Position numbers and translations under genes: made by a program. From an uncultured delta proteobacterium (lineage in GTDB: Bacteria; Myxococcota_A; Polyangia; Polyangiales; Polyangiaceae), in NCBI GenBank assembly GCA_963850305.1, contig CAWKKR010000001.1:96001-160000 (forward strand): a stretch of 64,000 nucleotides of DNA. The letters run 5' to 3'. Below the pieces are notes generated by a model. The model made no database searches. It had not been told where the DNA came from and saw only the letters and a program-made list of their open reading frames with translations. How positions within the stretch are numbered: position 1 is the first letter of the stretch; each line of letters begins with the position of its first letter. Below are positions 878 to 31,648 of the stretch, one piece after another.

Positions 878-2158
878 CTAGACGGCGCGGCAACGGAATC
901 CGCTGAGGAGTCGTTCCAGTTGCACGGCCTTCCAGCGCGTTTCGGCGACCTCGAGTGCGGGGCTACTTTTCGCCACGATACCTCCGCCCGCAAAATAGTG
1001 TCCGATACCATCTCGAACGGTCAACGTGCGGATGGCCATCGCGAGACGGAGCGAGGCGTCATGACGGAGAGCTCCGAAGGCCCCCGTGTAAAGCCCCCGG
1101 CGAGCGGCCTCGAGCGTCGCGATGACCTCCATTGCGCGAATCTTCGGCGCGCCGGTCACGCTGCCACTCGGGAGCATTGCATCAAGGAGCTGCGCGCGGC
1201 CAACCCCGGCGCGAAGACGCGCCGCGACGGCCTGCAACCGATGATGCACGCTGCCGTGCGCCTCGACCCGCGCCGGTCCGCGGAGCCTGACGGAACCCGT
1301 GCGCGCTACACGGCCCAGGTCGTTCCGCTCGACGTCGACGACCATGGATAGCTCCGCGCGCTCTTTGGAATCGGAATCCAAAGCCAGCGCGAGAGCGCCG
1401 TCGGTCGTTCTATCTTCGCCGCGCGGCCGCGTGCCCTTGATCGGCACGGTGACCATCCGGCCATCGGGGGCGAGGTCGAGGAACATTTCGGGCGACGAGC
1501 TCGCCACCGTGAGACCGTCGACAGCAAATGCCGCCGCGAACCGGGCTGGAGTCCGAGCCGTGAGTCCTTCAACCAGATCCACGGCCCGCGCGGACACCCG
1601 AAAATCGAATCGTCTCGAAAGGTTGACCTGATAGATTTGACCCTCGGCAATGAGTTCGATGGCGTGTTCGATCCGGGCACCGTGAAGTGCGTCCTCCTCG
1701 CTTTCCAATCGTACGAGGCCGACGTCGCCTCCGCATCGCGACCCCGAACGGATTCGTGCCGCGAGGGACGTCACGCGATCCTCGTCGTCGCCCGCAACGA
1801 GCACATCGTCGCCCACGCGCGCGACAGCGCCGAACCGATACCAGATCACCTCGGACATATGTGGAGCGGCACGTTCCTCGTGACGCGCGCGCCCGGCTCG
1901 CTCGAGCCCGCGGCAAGCCTCATATGGCAGGAGACCGATCCATCGAGGGAACGTCCCGAGTGTCGACTCGGACGGGCCGAGCGACAGTGACGGCTCGGGG
2001 TCGAAAGCAAAAGACCGTGCGATCGGATCGCAGGCGATGTACGACGGCTCACCATCCACGGCGCTCCAGAGAAAAGCGAATCCCGGCTCTTCCGCCACCG
2101 TCCGGGCCACGAGCAGCGGATCCGGAGCGACATCGACTCGACGAGCAAAGAGTTTCAT
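878..2158 (-). CDS. pabB: Aminodeoxychorismate synthase component I / anthranilate synthase I family (chorismate-binding)
   Basis: YQVNLSRRF, SSPEMFL, PIKGTRPR, KERAELSMVVDVERNDL, SGSVTGAPKIRAM motifs; ATG 2158 overlaps the upstream stop. Confidence 0.85.
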   Translation of the reverse strand: MKLFARRVDVAPDPLLVARTVAEEPGFAFLWSAVDGEPSYIACDPIARSFAFDPEPSLSLGPSESTLGTFPRWIGLLPYEACRGLERAGRARHEERAAPHMSEVIWYRFGAVARVGDDVLVAGDDEDRVTSLAARIRSGSRCGGDVGLVRLESEEDALHGARIEHAIELIAEGQIYQVNLSRRFDFRVSARAVDLVEGLTARTPARFAAAFAVDGLTVASSSPEMFLDLAPDGRMVTVPIKGTRPRGEDRTTDGALALALDSDSKERAELSMVVDVERNDLGRVARTGSVRLRGPARVEAHGSVHHRLQAVAARLRAGVGRAQLLDAMLPSGSVTGAPKIRAMEVIATLEAARRGLYTGAFGALRHDASLRLAMAIRTLTVRDGIGHYFAGGGIVAKSSPALEVAETRWKAVQLERLLSGFRCRAV

Positions 2159-3045
2159 CGATCCACCGGAACGACTTGCCCCGCGGTAGTGACAACAGCA
2201 TTGCTCAAGGGCGCCCGCACGACCGCGCCCGGCCAGATGACGACTCGCTCGACGAGCCCGTGACCCTCGAGCGTCGCACCAGCGCCGATCACCGAGTCGC
2301 GGACATTCACGCCGGGTGCCACGCGGGCGCGAGCATGCACCCACGCCGCGGACTGACCGGCCACGAGCTCGAGCCAGTCGAGATTTGCGGCGTGATACGC
2401 CGCAACGGTGCCGATGTCCGTCCATCCGCCAAGCAGCGTCACCGAGGCGATCCGTTCGCCCCGGGCGAGCGCAGGTATCGCGACGTCGGCGACCAGGCAG
2501 CCTCGCGCAGGTAACGCTTCGAGCGCACGCGAGCCGAGCGCGGCGATGCCGACGTAGTCTCCGCCGCTATCCTCGCGGCCAACGCCGACGCAGCGCAGTC
2601 GAACGACGCGGCCAGTCTCGTCGAGCCCGACCGTTCCCGCGCCACGAGCGCGCCTGGCGACGAGAAGCACAAGACCGCCGTCCTCTTCCGCGCGCGTCGC
2701 GAGTTCCAGTATGGGGGGCTCGGCCAAGACATCCCCATTCCAGACTATGACTGGACCCGCGCCGAGCAGCGCCCGCGCACCAGCAATCCCTCCCGCCGTT
2801 CCGCGGATATCGACTTCATGTATAAGATGAATTTTTCTGGATAAAGAGTCGATAGCACCAGCAAAATGTTCGTGCCGATGATGCGTATTCACGACGATTT
2901 CCGAGACGCTCCCGCGTCCCAGGCGGTCGGCGATATGCGCCAGGACGGGCCGATCGCCAAGGGGCACGAGCGGCTTCGGGACCTCGTCGGTGAGCGGCCG
3001 GAGTCGAGTACCGAAACCAGCGGCCAGGATCATCGCTCGAGACAT
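2155..3045 (-). CDS. Sugar-phosphate nucleotidyltransferase (MurU / mannose-1-P guanylyltransferase-like)
   Basis: AMILAAGFGTRLRPLTDEVPKPLV, NGD, WTDIGT motifs; short C-terminal hexapeptide-like region. Confidence 0.85.
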   Translation of the reverse strand: MSRAMILAAGFGTRLRPLTDEVPKPLVPLGDRPVLAHIADRLGRGSVSEIVVNTHHRHEHFAGAIDSLSRKIHLIHEVDIRGTAGGIAGARALLGAGPVIVWNGDVLAEPPILELATRAEEDGGLVLLVARRARGAGTVGLDETGRVVRLRCVGVGREDSGGDYVGIAALGSRALEALPARGCLVADVAIPALARGERIASVTLLGGWTDIGTVAAYHAANLDWLELVAGQSAAWVHARARVAPGVNVRDSVIGAGATLEGHGLVERVVIWPGAVVRAPLSNAVVTTAGQVVPVDR

Positions 3046-3126
3046 GGCTGCGCCCGTCTTGCCCCGACCGAGCCCACTTCGCAAGAAACTCGCCCGCACC
3101 GGAAGAGCCATGGTACCCGCGCCGAG

Positions 3127-24746: not shown

Positions 24747-27197
24747 TCAGAACGCGAGCGGCGCTGGAACCGCCAGCCGAACGGGTCCGGCTGGCGCCGC
24801 GAATTCGTAAACGCTGCCTCGACGATCGGTGAGACCGAGTCGCACGAACCCGTCGGCACGAACGAGGGCGAAAGGAGCGAGCGGCGCCGGCTCGGATTCG
24901 CCCTCCGGGACGACATAAACGCTCAGGGGCGCAAACTTGGATGGTAGCGGGGCGCTCGAATCCGCGCAGTACGCCGCGACGGATGTCGTGCCCTCCTCGA
25001 CGGCGCATCGCGAAAGCGCGGCCGCATCTTGCCGGACATCGAGAGACGGAACGGTGTGGATCAATCGAGCCGCTTCTCGTCGGACGAGGACGGCTGGGTC
25101 GCGTGCGAGCAGCGAGCGTTCCGCGGATGGACATCGCGATCGTGACGCGAGAAGCCCCGCGAGGGCGTTCACGCGCACGTACTCCCGATCCGAATCCAGC
25201 GACGCGCATAGTTGCTTCGTGACGGGGACTCCGCGGGCGCCCAGACGTCCGAGCGAAGCTGCGGAATCTCCGCCCACGGCGACATTGGTGTCGAAAAGCA
25301 AGCTCGCGATGAGGGGCACTTGCTCGGCGCCCCCAGCAGCTCCGAGCGACCAGACAGCGTTGGCGCGCACCGATGCATCGTTATCCCGGGCCAGCAGGAG
25401 GAGAGTCGTCAGCGCTTCCGGATGAGCGGCGAGCGCCTCCGCGATCTTCGCGCGCGTCGGAGTATCGGCCCCGGGAAGCAGTCGGATGAGTGCGTCGCTT
25501 CCGAGCGCACCCCCGACGGCTCCCAGCGCCTCGATCAACGCATCTGCATCTGCTCCGGTCGCAACAGGGATGAGGGAAAGGGCCCGATTCACGACGCGGC
25601 GGTCCTCCGTGGCGGACAGAGCGCCGACGAGCGCGACGCCGATCGCACCTCGATCCTGGTCGGCGGAACGCTCGAAGCGATCCAGCAGAAGACCCGCTGT
25701 GGCCGCCGACGCAGTCCGCCGCAGGGATAGCGCGGCGGCGCGTCGAACCGCAGCGTGTTCGTCGTCAAGAGCAGCAAGCAAGGGAGCATCCTGCCCGGAC
25801 CGACCGAGAAACCCCAGCGCCTGAATGGCGACGAGCCGGAGCGAAGTATCCGTCGCGTCGCGTGTCAGTGCGGAAAGGACGGGGATCGCCCGAGGTGAAC
25901 CCGTCCGCCCGAGGAGCGCGACGAGCGAGGCTCGCTCCGCGCGACGCGCGTGGGCGGCGTCTAGCGCCCGAAGAATGGGCTCCACGGCACGTCCGTCCGG
26001 GACCTCCGGCTCGAGAAGCGCCGTGGCGGCGTCGACGGCCGCGTGCCGTACGCGCGGGTCGTCCGAGCGGAGGGACTCGAGCACGAGACCGAGTTCCCTC
26101 GAATCACGCGAGCGGCCGATCGCATCGAGAGCAATCTCGGTTTTCACGGCGCCGCGCCGCAGGCCGTCGGCGACCGCGTCGACTGCAGCCTGTGTTCCGA
26201 TCTCGCCCAAGGCGAGCACGCATCCATCCGTCCGATCGAACGCCGATCGAACTCGAACGCATTCGATCAGAGTCGGCACGGCCCGGTCCCCGGCATGCAC
26301 GAGAGCCGCCCGACCCGGCGATGCCGCGCGCGGATCGTCCCCTCGAAGCGTTTGCACCAGAGCATCGAGCCCCGCTTGTGACGGGATGCTGCCGAGTGCC
26401 GCCAGCGCAGCCTGACGGACGAGTGGCCGCCGCTCCTCCGCGAGGAGCGCAACGATGGTGCCCACGGCTTCCTCGGCATGCAGGCGACTTAGCGCCGTCA
26501 GCACGGCGATGCGCACGTTCTCGTCGGGGTCGCGTAACATGAGGGTCAGCGCACTCGCAGCACGCGCATCCCCGAGTTCGCCAAGTGCCATCGCGACGCT
26601 CCGGCGCACGCCAGGTCTTGGGTCCTGACTCTTCCCAACGAGGGGGACGACAGCTCCGAGATCCCCGATACGCGCGAGCGCGGTGGTCACGGCCTCGCGA
26701 ACGTCCGCGTCGGTGTCGTCGAGGCGCCCCAGTAGAGGCACCACCGCACTCTTTGCGCCGGATGCCCCGAGCGCGCGAGCGGCGGCGACGCGAACGGAGG
26801 GCTCTTGGTCGCCGAGAATTCTTCCGAGCGCGCCTACGGCGTCATTCACTGGATCGCGAGCCAGGGCGGCGGCGGCGGCGCGGCGGATGCGGGCATCGGG
26901 ATCGCCCAACCACGAAATGACACGCCGTCCGAGTCCATCGACCCGATCTTCGATGAGCGCGTCGAGCGCTGCGATACGAACGTCGGGATCCGGATCATCG
27001 AGGGCCGGCAACGCGATGCGCCGGAGCGACGCCCGAGGCATCGCGCTGAGCCTCCGCGCGGCGTTCCGTCGCACCCCGACATCTGGCGCGGACAGATCAC
27101 GAGCGGTCGCATCGATGGTGCTCGGCCAGACGAATGCCTCCGCCCCTGGAGCTCCCAGGCAGACCGCGACGATCAAACTCGAGAGCACAAGACGCAT
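24747..27197 (-). CDS. Secreted HEAT / PBS-lyase repeat protein
   Basis: Signal peptide ending AEA; many L.D.D..VR.AA..AL repeats. Confidence 0.85.
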   Translation of the reverse strand: MRLVLSSLIVAVCLGAPGAEAFVWPSTIDATARDLSAPDVGVRRNAARRLSAMPRASLRRIALPALDDPDPDVRIAALDALIEDRVDGLGRRVISWLGDPDARIRRAAAAALARDPVNDAVGALGRILGDQEPSVRVAAARALGASGAKSAVVPLLGRLDDTDADVREAVTTALARIGDLGAVVPLVGKSQDPRPGVRRSVAMALGELGDARAASALTLMLRDPDENVRIAVLTALSRLHAEEAVGTIVALLAEERRPLVRQAALAALGSIPSQAGLDALVQTLRGDDPRAASPGRAALVHAGDRAVPTLIECVRVRSAFDRTDGCVLALGEIGTQAAVDAVADGLRRGAVKTEIALDAIGRSRDSRELGLVLESLRSDDPRVRHAAVDAATALLEPEVPDGRAVEPILRALDAAHARRAERASLVALLGRTGSPRAIPVLSALTRDATDTSLRLVAIQALGFLGRSGQDAPLLAALDDEHAAVRRAAALSLRRTASAATAGLLLDRFERSADQDRGAIGVALVGALSATEDRRVVNRALSLIPVATGADADALIEALGAVGGALGSDALIRLLPGADTPTRAKIAEALAAHPEALTTLLLLARDNDASVRANAVWSLGAAGGAEQVPLIASLLFDTNVAVGGDSAASLGRLGARGVPVTKQLCASLDSDREYVRVNALAGLLASRSRCPSAERSLLARDPAVLVRREAARLIHTVPSLDVRQDAAALSRCAVEEGTTSVAAYCADSSAPLPSKFAPLSVYVVPEGESEPAPLAPFALVRADGFVRLGLTDRRGSVYEFAAPAGPVRLAVPAPLAF

Positions 27198-27269
27198 GCG
27201 CCACGGAGCTTACATCACCACGCGGCGCGCGCTCCTCCTGCGCGCAGACGATGGCCCCGCGAGGCACCG

Positions 27270-29171
27270 CTATTCGGCGTCGCTGGGGGCGAGCGCCGCC
27301 CGCGGGGAGCTGCGGAGCATCGTCCGACGCGAGAGCACCCGTTCGAAGGCCCTGGCGCACCGGGCATTTTGCTCCTGCGTCCCTACCGTCACACGCACGA
27401 AACGCTTGGTCGCATGATGAACCTCGAGCGACCGAATCAAGATGCCCTCCGCCAACACCGATGCGACGAAATCCGCGGCTGAAGTCCCCGTCGCCGAGAT
27501 GTCCACGAGCACGAAATTGCCGTCGCTCGGCAGCACCGAGACCCCCGCAAGGGTCTCCAGCCGCGCCACGAGCTCCGCGCGCCCGGCCTTGAGCGCGTCC
27601 ACTCGGGTCTCGAATTCGGCAACGTCGTCCAGCGCAGCTTCCGCTGCCGCCAGCGTCACCGACGGAACGTTCCACGGGATCTTCACGCGCGACAGGAGCT
27701 CGATCACCGCCGAGTGACCGAGCGCGTACCCAAGCCTCATGCCCGCGAGCCCGAACGCCTTCGAGAACGTCCGCAGCAGTATCATGTTCGGGTAGTCGCG
27801 CAGAAGACGCGCGAAGCTTTGCGCATCCCCAAGCTCCACATATGCCTCGTCGACGACCGTCGGCAGACCGAGCCCCAGGATGCGCCGAAGATCGGTCTCT
27901 CCGATGCCGTTGCCGGTCGGGTTGTTCGGCGTGCAGAGGAAGACGATCTTCGTCCGCTCGGTGACGGCGCGGATGAGACTGCCCACGTCGTGATCGTGAT
28001 CGTCGGTCATCGAAACGATCACCGGAATGCCGCCGACGACCCGGGTTCTCGCTTCGTACATGCTGAACGTCGGTACACTCAGCAGCACCTCCTCGCCCGG
28101 ACCGACGAAGGTGCGAATCACCAAATCGATGAGCTCGGTCGAGCCCATCCCGAGCAGCACGTTCGACGCCTCCAGACCATCTCGCCCCGCGATCTTGGAC
28201 TTCAGGCGGGCGCCGTTCGGTGGATAGTGATTTGCGTTGGTGGCTGCGTCGACGATCGCGCGGATCACGCGCGGACTCGGCGAATATGGGCTCTCGTTCG
28301 ACATCATCCGCAGGACGTCGCCCCGCTCGGCAATGGCGAAATGTCCCTCGTTATACGGCTTCGCCGCCCGGACCCAGCTCGGCGCGAAGAGCTCCACGCT
28401 GTCGGGCTGCACGGCCCCACCGCTCCCCGGCTCGTCGCCCAGCGCGTCGCCGAACACCCGGATCATCGCCTCGGCGCGGTCCATCGCTTCGGGAGTGTCC
28501 ACGTCGATCCAGCGCGCGTCCCCGACGTCGCACGCGAAGAATGCACCCTTCGCCGCGAGCGCACGAACGCCCTCGGAAAGCGAGGCGTCGCCCATCCTGG
28601 CGACGACCTCCTCGAGCTCGCGTACGAGCGCCGGCCCGATCCGGAACACGCCCGTGTCGATCGCGTCGTATTCCGGCAGTTCCTTCCCGATCTCGGCGAT
28701 GCGTCCCTTCTGCGTCACGACCTTCGTCGCGTCGTCGAGGTCGAAGCAGCGCGCGATGTCGCGATCGACGCCCAGCGCGCATGCACCCTTCGGCAGCTCG
28801 GCCGCGAGCAGCCGGCGCGGAAGCTCTGGCGAGTAAAGGTGGTCCGACATCGTCAGCAGGCAGTCGCCGTCGATGAATTCCTTCGCTGCGAGCAGAGAGA
28901 CGCCGTTCTTGGCGTGGAAGTTCGGATTCTCGACGAAGCGAATTTCGAGTCCGAGCCCCGACGCCGTCTGAAGCGCACGTCGTACAACGTCGCCGCGATG
29001 CCCCAGCACGACGACCGCTTCTCGAATCCCGACCTCTTCGAGGGTGCGGAGGACTCTCACCAGCAACGGGATGCCGCTCACTGCACGCACCGGCTTCGGG
29101 ACCTGGCCGTTCAGCCGTGAGCCGAGCCCAGCCGCCAGTACGATCGCCCGGGTGACACGCCTGTCTCTCAT
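27270..29171 (-). CDS. Fusion of inositol-1-phosphate cytidylyltransferase (IPCT)-like domain and HisC/CobD-type PLP enzyme
   Basis: N-terminal LAAGLGSRL..PKP, NGVSLLAAK, LTMSDHLY, DDATKV, IGKEL.EYDAIDTG, WIDVD; C-terminal SNESP, PNNPTG, DEAY, RTFSKAFGLAGMRLGY. Confidence 0.85.
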   Translation of the reverse strand: MRDRRVTRAIVLAAGLGSRLNGQVPKPVRAVSGIPLLVRVLRTLEEVGIREAVVVLGHRGDVVRRALQTASGLGLEIRFVENPNFHAKNGVSLLAAKEFIDGDCLLTMSDHLYSPELPRRLLAAELPKGACALGVDRDIARCFDLDDATKVVTQKGRIAEIGKELPEYDAIDTGVFRIGPALVRELEEVVARMGDASLSEGVRALAAKGAFFACDVGDARWIDVDTPEAMDRAEAMIRVFGDALGDEPGSGGAVQPDSVELFAPSWVRAAKPYNEGHFAIAERGDVLRMMSNESPYSPSPRVIRAIVDAATNANHYPPNGARLKSKIAGRDGLEASNVLLGMGSTELIDLVIRTFVGPGEEVLLSVPTFSMYEARTRVVGGIPVIVSMTDDHDHDVGSLIRAVTERTKIVFLCTPNNPTGNGIGETDLRRILGLGLPTVVDEAYVELGDAQSFARLLRDYPNMILLRTFSKAFGLAGMRLGYALGHSAVIELLSRVKIPWNVPSVTLAAAEAALDDVAEFETRVDALKAGRAELVARLETLAGVSVLPSDGNFVLVDISATGTSAADFVASVLAEGILIRSLEVHHATKRFVRVTVGTQEQNARCARAFERVLSRRTMLRSSPRAALAPSDAE

Positions 29172-29403
29172 GGGATTCTCGCGCCCGCGACCTGGTAGCA
29201 CGCTCGTGGAAATCACGGCAAATCCTTTTCAGTTCAGATAGTTAGGTGACGGTGAAGCTGTCGCAGTCGAACCACACTGTCGTCATTTAGCTACACCAGA
29301 ACGCCCGGGACCGCGCCCCAGCGAAAGACCAGGTGTGATGCGCAAATATAATGATTTCAGTTATTTCCATGGCAAACAGGCCGGTCAACCCGGCCAGCCA
29401 TTA

Positions 29404-29420
29404 AGCAAGCCGGATGCCAA
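29404..29420 (-). promoter_or_regulatory. Sigma54 (-24/-12) promoter
   Basis: Minus strand reads TTGGCATCCGGCTTGCT: GG-N10-GC with TGGCA and TTGC, in an intergenic region and oriented toward the IPCT fusion gene. Confidence 0.7.
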
Positions 29421-29545
29421 TGCCCGGTGCGTCAACCATTTCGCACCTCGCGGTGCCGATCGCGGCTTTTCCCTGACGTCAACGTCACATGCCGCGCATG
29501 GCCGCTCGGACCCTGTTGCACCTCGGCAACACCGTGCCCGGAATG

Positions 29546-30274
29546 TCAGTGCGAAAAGAGTTCCCTCGCTTGATCCAGATCCTCGAGCGAATCCACTTCG
29601 CACCAGCGAAGCCCGGTGATGTCCACCGCCCTGACGCGTGCTCCGCGCAGGATCAGTCGGGAATACACGTCCTCGTAGTAGAGGTGGGTGTCGCCCGCGG
29701 CGCGCGCGCCGTCGAGAGCGTCAAAGAGCTCCTCGCAAGCGCTGGAGTCTATTCGCTCGATCCCGATGCTTTCGCCCCCACTCTCGGACAGCGGAATCCC
29801 TTTCCCGAAGGCGGCGATGTCCTGGCTACCACGCTCGAGACGCACCTTCATTGCCTCGTCGTCGAGCTTTCGCTCTCGGTCGACAGCAGCGGAGATGTAG
29901 GCGGAGCTCGAATTCAATCGCGAAAGAATCTCCGCGTCGAAAACGACATCGCCGTCGAGTCGAAAAAAGGAATCGCCACCGACGGCATCACGACAGAGCG
30001 CCAGCGAAACCGAGTTTTGCGTCGCCGCGTAGTCGGGATTCGGGCAAAAAGTGACCTCCAGCGACGACTCCGCGAGGGCATGTCGAAGCGCGTGCTCCTT
30101 GTAACCCGTGGCAACTACGAGCCTCGACACGCCCGCGCCGACCAGCGCGTCGACGGCTCTGGACAAAATCGTCCCGCTACCCAAGGGGACCAGAGGTTTC
30201 GGCCGGTCGTCAGTGAGCGGCCGAAGCCGGGAGCCGGTACCCGCAGCTAAGATCACGGCCAGACGAGTTGCCAT
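29546..30274 (-). CDS. LicC-like phosphocholine / phosphoalcohol cytidylyltransferase
   Basis: ILAAGTGSRLRPLTDDRPKPL, NPDY..TQNSVSL, DGDVVF, EAMKV, GESIGI, YYED, WCEVDS.EDL. Confidence 0.85.
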   Translation of the reverse strand: MATRLAVILAAGTGSRLRPLTDDRPKPLVPLGSGTILSRAVDALVGAGVSRLVVATGYKEHALRHALAESSLEVTFCPNPDYAATQNSVSLALCRDAVGGDSFFRLDGDVVFDAEILSRLNSSSAYISAAVDRERKLDDEAMKVRLERGSQDIAAFGKGIPLSESGGESIGIERIDSSACEELFDALDGARAAGDTHLYYEDVYSRLILRGARVRAVDITGLRWCEVDSLEDLDQARELFSH

Positions 30275-30334
30275 CGGGAGATGGCGCGACGATTGCACAG
30301 TCCCCGGGATCTTGATAGGAGCCCGCACGAATCC

Positions 30335-31648
30335 ATGAAGCAGCCTGAACGCATTGGAAAGCCGCACGGCAAGCTTGCCGTGTTTTTGCCCGGCCTCGGA
30401 GCCGTGGCCACCACATTCATCGCGGGCTGCATGCTCGCCCGGAAGAGCAAGGCGTTACCCATCGGGTCACTCACCCAGATGGGCACCATCCGGCTCGGAA
30501 AGCGCACCGATAAACAGGCCCCTAAGATCAAAGACTTCGTGCCTCTCGCGTCGCTCGACGATCTGGAATTTTGCGCCTGGGACCTCTTCGCCGACAACGC
30601 CTACGAGGCGGCGGTGAAGGCAGAGGTTCTGGAAGCGCGACATCTCGACACCATCAAATCCGAGCTCGAGAGCGTGGTGCCGAAGCCCGCGGTCTTTTAC
30701 ACGGAGTACGTCAAACGGTTGAGCGGGTCGCACGTCAAGAAGGGTGCAACCAAAGCAGACATGGTCGAAGCCCTGCGCGAAGACATTCGCACGTTCATGA
30801 AGGAGCGCGGGTGTGCTCGCGCGGTCACAGTGTGGTGCGGCTCGACTGAAATTTATCTCCAGGCGACCGCCGTGCACCAATCGATCGACGCGTTCGAGGC
30901 GGGGCTCCGTGCGAATGACGCGTCGATCTCGAGCTCGCAGATCTACGCTTGGGCGTGCATACTGGAGGGGGTTCCCTTTGCGAACGGCGCTCCGAACCTG
31001 TGTGTCGACTTTCCCGCAGCGCACGACCTAGCGAAGAAAACGAGGACGCCTATCTGCGGAAAGGACTTCAAGACCGGTCAGACTCTCATGAAAACGATCC
31101 TCGCGCCGGGTCTGAAGGCGCGGATGCTCGGGATCGACGGGTGGTTTTCTACGAACATCCTCGGCAACCGCGATGGAGAGGTGCTGGACGACCCAGATAA
31201 CTTCAAGACCAAGGAAGTCAGCAAGCTCAGCGTACTCGAGCACATCCTGCAACCGGAGACCTACCCCGATCTCTACGGCCACGTTTATCACAAGGTGACA
31301 ATCAACTATTACCCGCCCCGCGGTGACGCCAAGGAAGGGTGGGACAACGTGGATATCCGCGGCTGGCTCGGGTACCCGATGCAAATCAAGGTCGACTTCC
31401 TCTGTCGGGACTCCATCCTTGCTGCGCCCATCGTGCTGGATCTCGCGCTGTTCATGGACCTCGCGAAGCGTGCCGGGTTTCACGGGGTGCAGGAATGGCT
31501 CAGTTTCTATTTCAAGAGCCCGATGACGGCCGAGGGGCTCTACCCCGAGCATGATCTCTTCATTCAAAGCATGAAATTGAAAAACACGCTTCGCTGGATG
31601 ATGAACCACGAGCTCATCACCCACCTCGGCAACGAATATTACGACTGA
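30335..31648 (+). CDS. ino1: myo-inositol-1-phosphate synthase
   Basis: GLGAVATT, GKDFKTGQT, NILGNRDG, YYPPRGDAK, RDSILAAP, SFYFKSP. Confidence 0.93.
   Translation: MKQPERIGKPHGKLAVFLPGLGAVATTFIAGCMLARKSKALPIGSLTQMGTIRLGKRTDKQAPKIKDFVPLASLDDLEFCAWDLFADNAYEAAVKAEVLEARHLDTIKSELESVVPKPAVFYTEYVKRLSGSHVKKGATKADMVEALREDIRTFMKERGCARAVTVWCGSTEIYLQATAVHQSIDAFEAGLRANDASISSSQIYAWACILEGVPFANGAPNLCVDFPAAHDLAKKTRTPICGKDFKTGQTLMKTILAPGLKARMLGIDGWFSTNILGNRDGEVLDDPDNFKTKEVSKLSVLEHILQPETYPDLYGHVYHKVTINYYPPRGDAKEGWDNVDIRGWLGYPMQIKVDFLCRDSILAAPIVLDLALFMDLAKRAGFHGVQEWLSFYFKSPMTAEGLYPEHDLFIQSMKLKNTLRWMMNHELITHLGNEYYD

Follow-up and report, generated by a model that had tools for sequence, protein, structure and literature searches.

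We analysed a 64,000-nucleotide stretch of DNA, here called the window, from an uncultured delta proteobacterium of the family Polyangiaceae (assembly GCA_963850305.1, contig CAWKKR010000001.1, positions 96,001 to 160,000). The window holds an inositol locus made up of ino1, a gene for a LicC-like cytidylyltransferase, and a gene for a fusion protein that joins an inositol-1-phosphate cytidylyltransferase (IPCT) domain to a pyridoxal-phosphate (PLP) enzyme (Table 1). An earlier note, made from the sequence alone, had described ino1 as divergent from the LicC-like gene across a 60-bp gap, and the 633-residue fusion as carrying IPCT-type motifs and an intact PLP domain. The first description is borne out by the sequence, and the second by the open reading frame (ORF), by the Pfam matches (NTP_transf_3 and Aminotran_1_2 on the fusion, Inos-1-P_synth on ino1) and by the catalytic residues. 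The motifs of the fusion N-domain read NGVSLLAAK, LTMSDHLY, ATK and IGKELPEYDAIDTG. In the AlphaFold model (mean pLDDT 82.3), the fusion forms two folded domains with a flexible linker, residues 263-274, at values below 50. K26, D110, D223, D225, N416, D441, Y444, K471, R479 and R580 were invariant in 49 of 49 aligned fusions, and R593 was kept in 48 of the 49. The 374-bp spacer 5' of the fusion may hold the fusion's own promoter; a promoter scan of this spacer returned one sigma-70-like site (29375-29348), which is at chance level (shuffle mean 0.6).

Table 1. Features of the inositol locus (window positions) and kinase genes of four related loci (positions prefixed with the locus)
Feature	Position	Strand	Evidence
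IPCT–PLP fusion, 633 aa	27270..29171	-	ORF, Pfam, relatives
Fusion N-domain, residues 1-245, inositol-1-phosphate cytidylyltransferase clade, MxDH motif	28437..29171	-	PDB matches, tree
Fusion C-domain, residues 258-633, PLP enzyme, distinct RMMSNE/PWN subfamily	27270..28400	-	Hidden Markov model (HMM), tree, residues, neighbours
LicC/PntC-like cytidylyltransferase, 242 aa, amine-binding acids D107 and E201	29546..30274	-	PDB matches, residues
ino1, myo-inositol-1-phosphate synthase, 437 aa	30335..31648	+	PF07994, PF01658
Divergent gap between LicC-like gene and ino1, 60 bp	30275..30334	.	Sequence
Spacer from LicC-like stop to fusion start, 374 bp	29172..29545	.	Sequence
72-bp spacer, CDP-alcohol phosphotransferase slot of most relatives, gene absent here	27198..27269	.	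Locus comparison
Divergent NQGET glycerol kinases directly upstream of fusion, LicC-like gene missing there	L079:6107-7630, L084:5069-6598, L085:4878-7449, L086:5082-6665		

The locus is real and conserved. Among the matches listed, 119 other proteins were 64-82% identical to the fusion over 82-100% of its length, and 80 related loci were recovered (170 stretches were confirmed and the best 80 kept, all metagenome-assembled genomes by title and mostly Polyangiaceae), which together exclude a misassembly or a chance fusion. An ino1 gene was present in 61 of these 80 loci, a LicC-like gene in 65 and a CDP-alcohol phosphotransferase (PF01066) in 56; in 34 of the 51 loci with full flanks all three were present. 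Co-occurrence was counted in 151 genomes of the family and in a phylum sample of 251 genomes, and kinship among the family genomes makes the figures counts and not a statistical test. The PLP domain was found in 58 of the 151 family genomes, always in a fused frame (frames of at least 638 residues), so that the conservation on which the earlier note had made its proposal depend was found. In the phylum sample, the IPCT domain matched in 106 genomes and the PLP subfamily in 6; the subfamily query gave 7 matches, one of which (G055) was an ordinary HisC. The source genome itself is 94.84% complete.

The N-domain falls in the IPCT clade, as had been predicted. Its best match in the PDB was the IPCT of A. 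fulgidus (2xme, E 1.4e-27), with further matches to 4mnd and 4jd0, and in our tree it nested among stand-alone IPCTs that flank ino1. It has the catalytic Arg, Lys and Asp together with the MxDH, ATK and IGK motifs, and Met108 stands in the MxDH motif as in the A. fulgidus enzyme. We think it very probable that the domain makes CDP-inositol. Against NF041135, which describes the architecture of IPCT fused to DIPPS, the fusion scored 133.7 bits, below the cut-off of 580, and a DIPPS-like gene was found in 0 of the 80 fusion loci. None of the 8 PF01066 matches of the genome lies inside the window, in line with the earlier note, which had found no CDP-alcohol phosphotransferase (DIPPS) there; yet the genome does carry a DIPPS-like gene elsewhere, at C1:781556, about 656 kb from the locus, with AF2299 and IPCT/DIPPS (4mnd) as its best solved matches. 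In the family, the IPCT domain occurred in 69 of 151 genomes, 11 of them without the PLP domain. An ino1 gene occurred in 103, including 68 of the 69 IPCT-positive genomes, and a DIPPS-like gene in 62 of the 69 IPCT-positive and 0 of the 82 IPCT-negative genomes, 19 of these 62 matches being weaker and possibly paralogues. IPCT, ino1 and DIPPS-like genes were also found without the PLP domain across the phylum; among 40 IPCT loci from the phylum sample, ino1 or a DIPPS-like gene lay nearby in 25, and five held IPCT–DIPPS fusions.

Other arrangements around IPCT were seen in the phylum. An IPCT-like domain was fused to a dehydroquinate-synthase-like cyclase at L117:7728-9590, L120:5322-7220, L122:7373-9244, L129:7605-9521 and L130:7819-9678, with genes for an SDR and a PfkB kinase after it in L117; these fusions of other families possibly belong to a CDP-cyclitol pathway. 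L108:2707-11946 combines three DIPPS-like transferases, an IPCT, a LicC-like gene, two flippase-like genes and a different HisC-like enzyme. L097:5243-12713 has an IPCT with two transferases and radical SAM and MMPL genes, and similar layouts stand near IPCT in L234-L236.

For the PLP domain a CobD-like decarboxylase had been proposed as one option, and here the phylogeny pointed the other way. Ten fusion domains and 23 stand-alone proteins formed one 33-row clade (SH-aLRT 98), which fell on the HisC side (98); the four CobD rows and the three LicC-fused rows of decarboxylase-like proteins lay elsewhere in the tree. The CobD references came from annotated plasmids. No CobD above the cut-off was found in 121 phylum genomes, and no close member of the PLP subfamily was found on plasmids, where the best match was about 35-37% identical. 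Against TIGR01140 (CobD) the domain scored 189.7, below the cut-off of 290.55. It reads DEAY, with Tyr444, in 49 of 49 fusions, at a site where the solved decarboxylases shown have Phe (DEAF or DESF, 3 of 3); a Tyr at this position is listed as conserved in aminotransferases (PMC4703992). Y444, the RTFSK motif and M371 are HisC-like features, and F369 resembles that of aromatic aminotransferases. The substrate pocket consists of N103/Y127/M129/Y261 in the HisC of Mycobacterium tuberculosis (Mtb) and of V86/F110/L112/F246 in its aromatic aminotransferase (PMC4703992); that of the fusion, placed by alignment, is T345/F369/M371/W500 and matches neither tetrad. A Trp at position 500 was found in none of the HisC-like controls compared. 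The phosphate-site residues N416, R580 and R593 are retained. A fold search with the domain added nothing beyond the sequence-level matches. The genome has two other HisC genes above the cut-off, one of them between pheA and aroA, and a hisD on another contig (C7), so that the domain is not its sole HisC, a possibility that the earlier note had left standing.

Further combinations of this kind were observed beside the main fusion. The same genome encodes a second nucleotidyltransferase–PLP fusion of 588 aa (L004:1360-3123, genome C8:30390-32156), whose PLP part is nearest to CobD and serine-phosphate decarboxylase; by sequence reading it adjoins a methyltransferase-like gene and an ABC transporter. 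At L244:6121-8088 an IPCT-like domain without the conserved Lys and His is fused to a transaminase of the class V, aminoethylphosphonate (AEP) type, in a genome that also carries the IPCT–PLP fusion studied here. Class V relatives have an IPCT or LicC gene nearby in L111, L102 and L246, and no class V transaminase stands beside IPCT in the IPCT-only family loci L229-L236.

The nearest stand-alone members of the PLP subfamily were 45-53% identical to the domain. Their gene context was taken from 10 metagenome loci, found in a scan of 2 of 64 collection parts, and their taxonomy rests on one source name, Anaerolineales. The neighbours were class II aldolase, transaldolase, transketolase, FGGY kinases, choline/ethanolamine-type kinases, amino-acid permeases and a RuBisCO-like protein. 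Such sugar-phosphate enzymes or a choline-type kinase stood beside the stand-alone members in 10 of 10 loci, compared with 0 of 68 other HisC-like loci. These catabolic members also pass the TIGR01141 (HisC) cut-off. Their operons suggest that an aminopolyol is taken up, phosphorylated and transaminated to a ketose phosphate. Because of the DEAY motif, the position on the HisC side of the tree and the stand-alone relatives in ketose-phosphate catabolic operons, decarboxylation is not supported. The domain groups with HisC-type transaminases and not with CobD-type decarboxylases; it is likely to be an aminopolyol-phosphate transaminase, and we think it probable that its product is an aminopolyol phosphate of some kind, made by transamination. 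The family is annotated as histidinol-phosphate aminotransferase and probably has another function, in biosynthetic and catabolic settings alike. The L137 and L139-L147 operons also hold a HAD phosphatase, GcvT-family oxidoreductases and GntR/DeoR regulators, and look like an undescribed (N-methyl)aminopolyol catabolic pathway.

In 4 of the 80 fusion loci a glycerol-kinase-like gene stood upstream of the fusion, in three of them with a HisJ-like PHP phosphatase next to it; in the three such genomes checked it was a second, divergent copy beside a canonical GlpK. These kinases share a change from NQRET to NQGET with the kinase of the stand-alone catabolic locus L146. The Arg of NQRET is presumably the residue by which glycerol kinase binds glycerol, and its loss suits a cationic amino-glycerol. 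No gene supplying an unusual ketose phosphate was found in the Polyangiaceae cluster, and for this reason dihydroxyacetone phosphate (DHAP) is the simplest substrate.

The LicC-like protein had PntC (6pd1) and LicC (1jyk) as its best PDB matches. Its D107 and E201 align with E104/E196 of PntC and D105/D192 of LicC, which sit at the amine in those enzymes (PMC6697681). At E<=1e-60, a cut set at a gap in the scores, a LicC-like orthologue was present in 45 of 58 PLP-positive and 0 of 93 PLP-negative family genomes; at E<=1e-40 the figures were 52 of 58 and 2 of 93. Neither choline kinase (PF01633, LicA) nor phosphoenolpyruvate (PEP) mutase (TIGR02320) was matched in the 94.8% complete genome. 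Phosphocholine and AEP are therefore unlikely substrates, and the phosphocholine and phosphonate routes were rejected.

A second family of CDP-alcohol phosphotransferases accompanies the PLP domain. The type found in the clusters occurred in 45 of the 58 PLP-positive family genomes. A sister type has two copies in the source genome (C4:487290 and C2:55915), and its C4 form occurred in 11 of the 13 PLP-positive genomes without the cluster type and in no PLP-negative genome; with both types counted, the family was present in 56 of 58. The cluster type and the C4 type share one tree branch (support 99), and the transferases of both branches had the A. fulgidus transferases AF2299 and IPCT/DIPPS as their best solved matches. 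The cluster slot is empty in the source locus, L018, L019 and L021, and in L020 the transferase start overlaps the fusion stop. In L093 the transferase is fused to the LicC-like gene, and in L262-L265 the two are neighbours outside the fusion locus. Hence ino1, IPCT and the DIPPS-like gene form one gene set, and the PLP domain, the LicC-like gene and the cluster transferase family form another. All 45 genomes with the LicC-like orthologue also have the PLP domain, and so the fusion joins two branches. The earlier note had offered CDP-inositol plus a CDP-aminoalcohol as one option; its two-branch layout is supported by this co-occurrence, and its PLP decarboxylation step is not, given the motif, the tree position and the ketose-phosphate neighbours.

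Taken together, we propose, with a probability of roughly 0.45 and on the basis of sequence comparison, that DHAP is converted through serinol phosphate and CDP-serinol into a lipid head group, beside a route from CDP-inositol to an inositol lipid. As is known for its family, Ino1 would convert glucose-6-phosphate to inositol phosphate. The IPCT domain would activate this to CDP-inositol, from which the DIPPS-like transferase at C1:781556 would move inositol phosphate onto its acceptor. In the other branch, the PLP domain would transaminate DHAP to serinol phosphate, a step to which we give an even chance, the LicC-like enzyme would activate the product to CDP-serinol, and the second transferase family, represented here at C4:487290 and C2:55915, would transfer serinol phosphate to a lipid acceptor, either diacylglycerol or ceramide. 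The acceptor may be ceramide: the genome has an SPT-like gene, although one scoring below its cut-off, and inositol phosphoceramide has been cited for Myxococcus xanthus (PMC9246714). The fusion would then pair the activating enzyme of one branch with the first enzyme of the other, and not two consecutive steps. Wider still, and tentatively, over a third of the sampled Polyangiaceae genomes may make a serinol-headed membrane lipid by way of CDP-serinol, with an enzyme from an undescribed aminopolyol-phosphate transaminase family filed as HisC. As part of this same tentative proposal, the lipid could be a phosphatidyl- or ceramide-phosphoserinol or a serinol-phospho-inositol conjugate, and the stand-alone members could run in reverse to recycle amino-glycerol compounds, in the order permease, amino-alcohol kinase, transaminase and aldolase.

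Several observations weigh against the serinol pathway. Thirteen of the 58 PLP-positive genomes have no close LicC-like orthologue, two (G280 and G295) have neither transferase type, a weaker match to the cluster type occurs in 4 of 93 PLP-negative genomes, and related genomes in all these counts are not independent. The PLP tree, of 69 rows, is a quick IQ-TREE run with SH-aLRT support, no bootstrap and long branches flagged. Identity to the subfamily query is 35-45% for the stand-alone genes of the 10 loci other than L137, where it is 73%, and the queries of the neighbour comparison came from those same loci. The choice of amine is open to question as well, as neighbours such as transaldolase, transketolase and xylulokinase-like enzymes are no less compatible with longer or different sugar phosphates than with DHAP. 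The same chemistry might thus act on another amine, with, for example, glyceraldehyde-3-phosphate giving 3-amino-1,2-propanediol phosphate, or a C4-C6 ketose-1-phosphate giving a longer aminopolyol phosphate, as the activated head group; the RuBisCO-like protein beside the stand-alone relatives points the same way, and the altered glycerol kinase is compatible with any aminated C3 compound. The lack of a supplier gene for an unusual ketose phosphate in the Polyangiaceae cluster speaks for DHAP, as would the HisC geometry (amine at C2, phosphate at C1) suggested by the kept phosphate site, which fits serinol phosphate, and we consider another amine unlikely. Slightly less likely still is that the branches converge, on a serinol-phospho-inositol diester (an amino analogue of glycerophosphoinositol) or on an inositol lipid capped with aminoalcohol phosphate. 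A shared output is suggested by the persistence of the fusion in all 58 PLP-positive genomes, by its clustering with ino1 in 61 of 80 loci, and by the common best matches of the two transferases to the A. fulgidus proteins; each activated alcohol, however, has its own co-occurring transferase, so that two separate products are simpler, and across the phylum the inositol genes are also found where the PLP domain is missing.

The decarboxylase would take serine or threonine phosphate to ethanolamine or aminopropanol phosphate, and then to a CDP-aminoalcohol for a lipid head group. T345 and W500 also occur in CobD (1lc5) and in the serine-phosphate decarboxylase SMUL_1544 (6oux), which counts against a transaminase; Cj1436 of Campylobacter jejuni catalyses such a reaction, from serine phosphate to ethanolamine phosphate (PMC11800397), and the LicC-like enzyme suits a primary amine. 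The sub-threshold CobD score, DEAY in place of DEAF or DESF, the place outside the decarboxylase side of the tree and the catabolic neighbours that point to ketose phosphates make this an improbable function. The domain passes TIGR01141 at 311 bits (cut-off 276.55), and its best solved relatives are the aromatic aminotransferase Mtb Rv3772 and HisC; with the aromatic-aminotransferase-like F369, this could mean that an ordinary HisC or aromatic aminotransferase became joined by chance to the IPCT beside it. With two other HisC genes in the genome, a separate clade, strict co-occurrence with the LicC-like gene, and catabolic stand-alone members that pass the same cut-off, we give such an accident very little credence. 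An amino-inositol, made by amination of inosose or CDP-inosose and named as an option in the earlier note, would explain why the PLP domain is fused to IPCT and adjoins ino1, and a related IPCT domain is fused to a cyclase in other families. It finds little support, for the cluster in the window has no dehydrogenase and none recurs among the relatives, the PLP domain tracks the LicC-like gene, IPCT occurs without it in 11 genomes, and the phosphate-site arginines suggest a small phospho-substrate; we think it equally remote.

The serinol pathway can be compared with several known systems. With the IPCT/DIPPS of A. fulgidus (2xme/4mnd) and the CDP-inositol lipid route it has in common the co-occurring ino1, the IPCT-clade cytidylyltransferase and the DIPPS-like transferase. 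It differs in that the fusion partner of IPCT is a PLP enzyme and not DIPPS, with the DIPPS-like gene far away, in the extra cytidylyltransferase and second transferase family, and in that the cluster lacks a HAD gene. Elsewhere the CDP-inositol route is already known or has been predicted (PMC9246714; PMC10191378): the lipid route belongs to hyperthermophiles, with a predicted alternative in an unconfirmed cluster of Bacteroidetes (PMC9246714). PntC-AEPT of Treponema denticola (6pd1) and LicC of S. pneumoniae (1jyk) offer a parallel in that a PLP transaminase step precedes the activation of an aminoalkyl phosph(on)ate by cytidylyl transfer (PMC6697681), and the amine-binding acids are kept here. 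In contrast to PntC-AEPT, the transaminase here has the HisC fold, not that of class V, and is fused to the cytidylyltransferase of the other branch; PEP mutase and choline kinase were not found in the source genome. As 6pd1 and the CobD-like protein at C8:30390 illustrate, a nucleotidyltransferase–PLP enzyme fusion is not new as such.

Serinol phosphate is made from DHAP by Cj1437 (PMC11800397) and by the N-domain of RtxA (PMC3222319). There an ATP-dependent ligase attaches the amine to capsule through an amide bond, or the amine goes into rhizobitoxine, whereas here it would be CDP-activated and phosphodiester-linked; the likeness drawn here is one of chemistry. Two rhizobial plasmid matches checked as RtxA candidates were not rtxA. 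In the ceramide diphosphoglycerate pathway of Caulobacter (CpgD/CpgA), the LicC-family cytidylyltransferase CpgD activates a C3 phosphate for a sphingolipid head group (PMC13228409; PMC12275187); its substrate is phosphoglycerate, and neither an amine nor a PLP enzyme is involved. HisC and aromatic aminotransferase of subfamily I-beta (Mtb Rv1600 and Rv3772; PMC4703992) share the fold, the PLP site and the phosphate-binding Asn/Arg/Arg with our domain, which differs in its pocket, its separate clade and its neighbours. A literature search, mostly of open-access texts, returned no description of an IPCT–transaminase fusion or of the PLP subfamily, and no occurrence of 'CDP-serinol' or 'phosphatidylserinol'. 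If our proposal is true, CDP-serinol would be a new activated intermediate, with a new head group, in bacterial lipid chemistry, in a large uncultured myxobacterial branch. The CDP-inositol lipid route, unconfirmed in Bacteroidetes (PMC9246714), would gain a directly assayable soluble enzyme. Three soluble proteins and simple substrates would be enough for first assays.

Directly 3' of the fusion lies a HEAT-repeat gene (24747-27197), present in 49 of the 80 related loci, which we treated as synteny only. A third nucleotidyltransferase of the window (2155-3111) is MurU-like by sequence reading and unrelated to the inositol locus. Elsewhere in the genome, at C8:125277-126302, there is a second, distant ino1-like gene with 31% identity.

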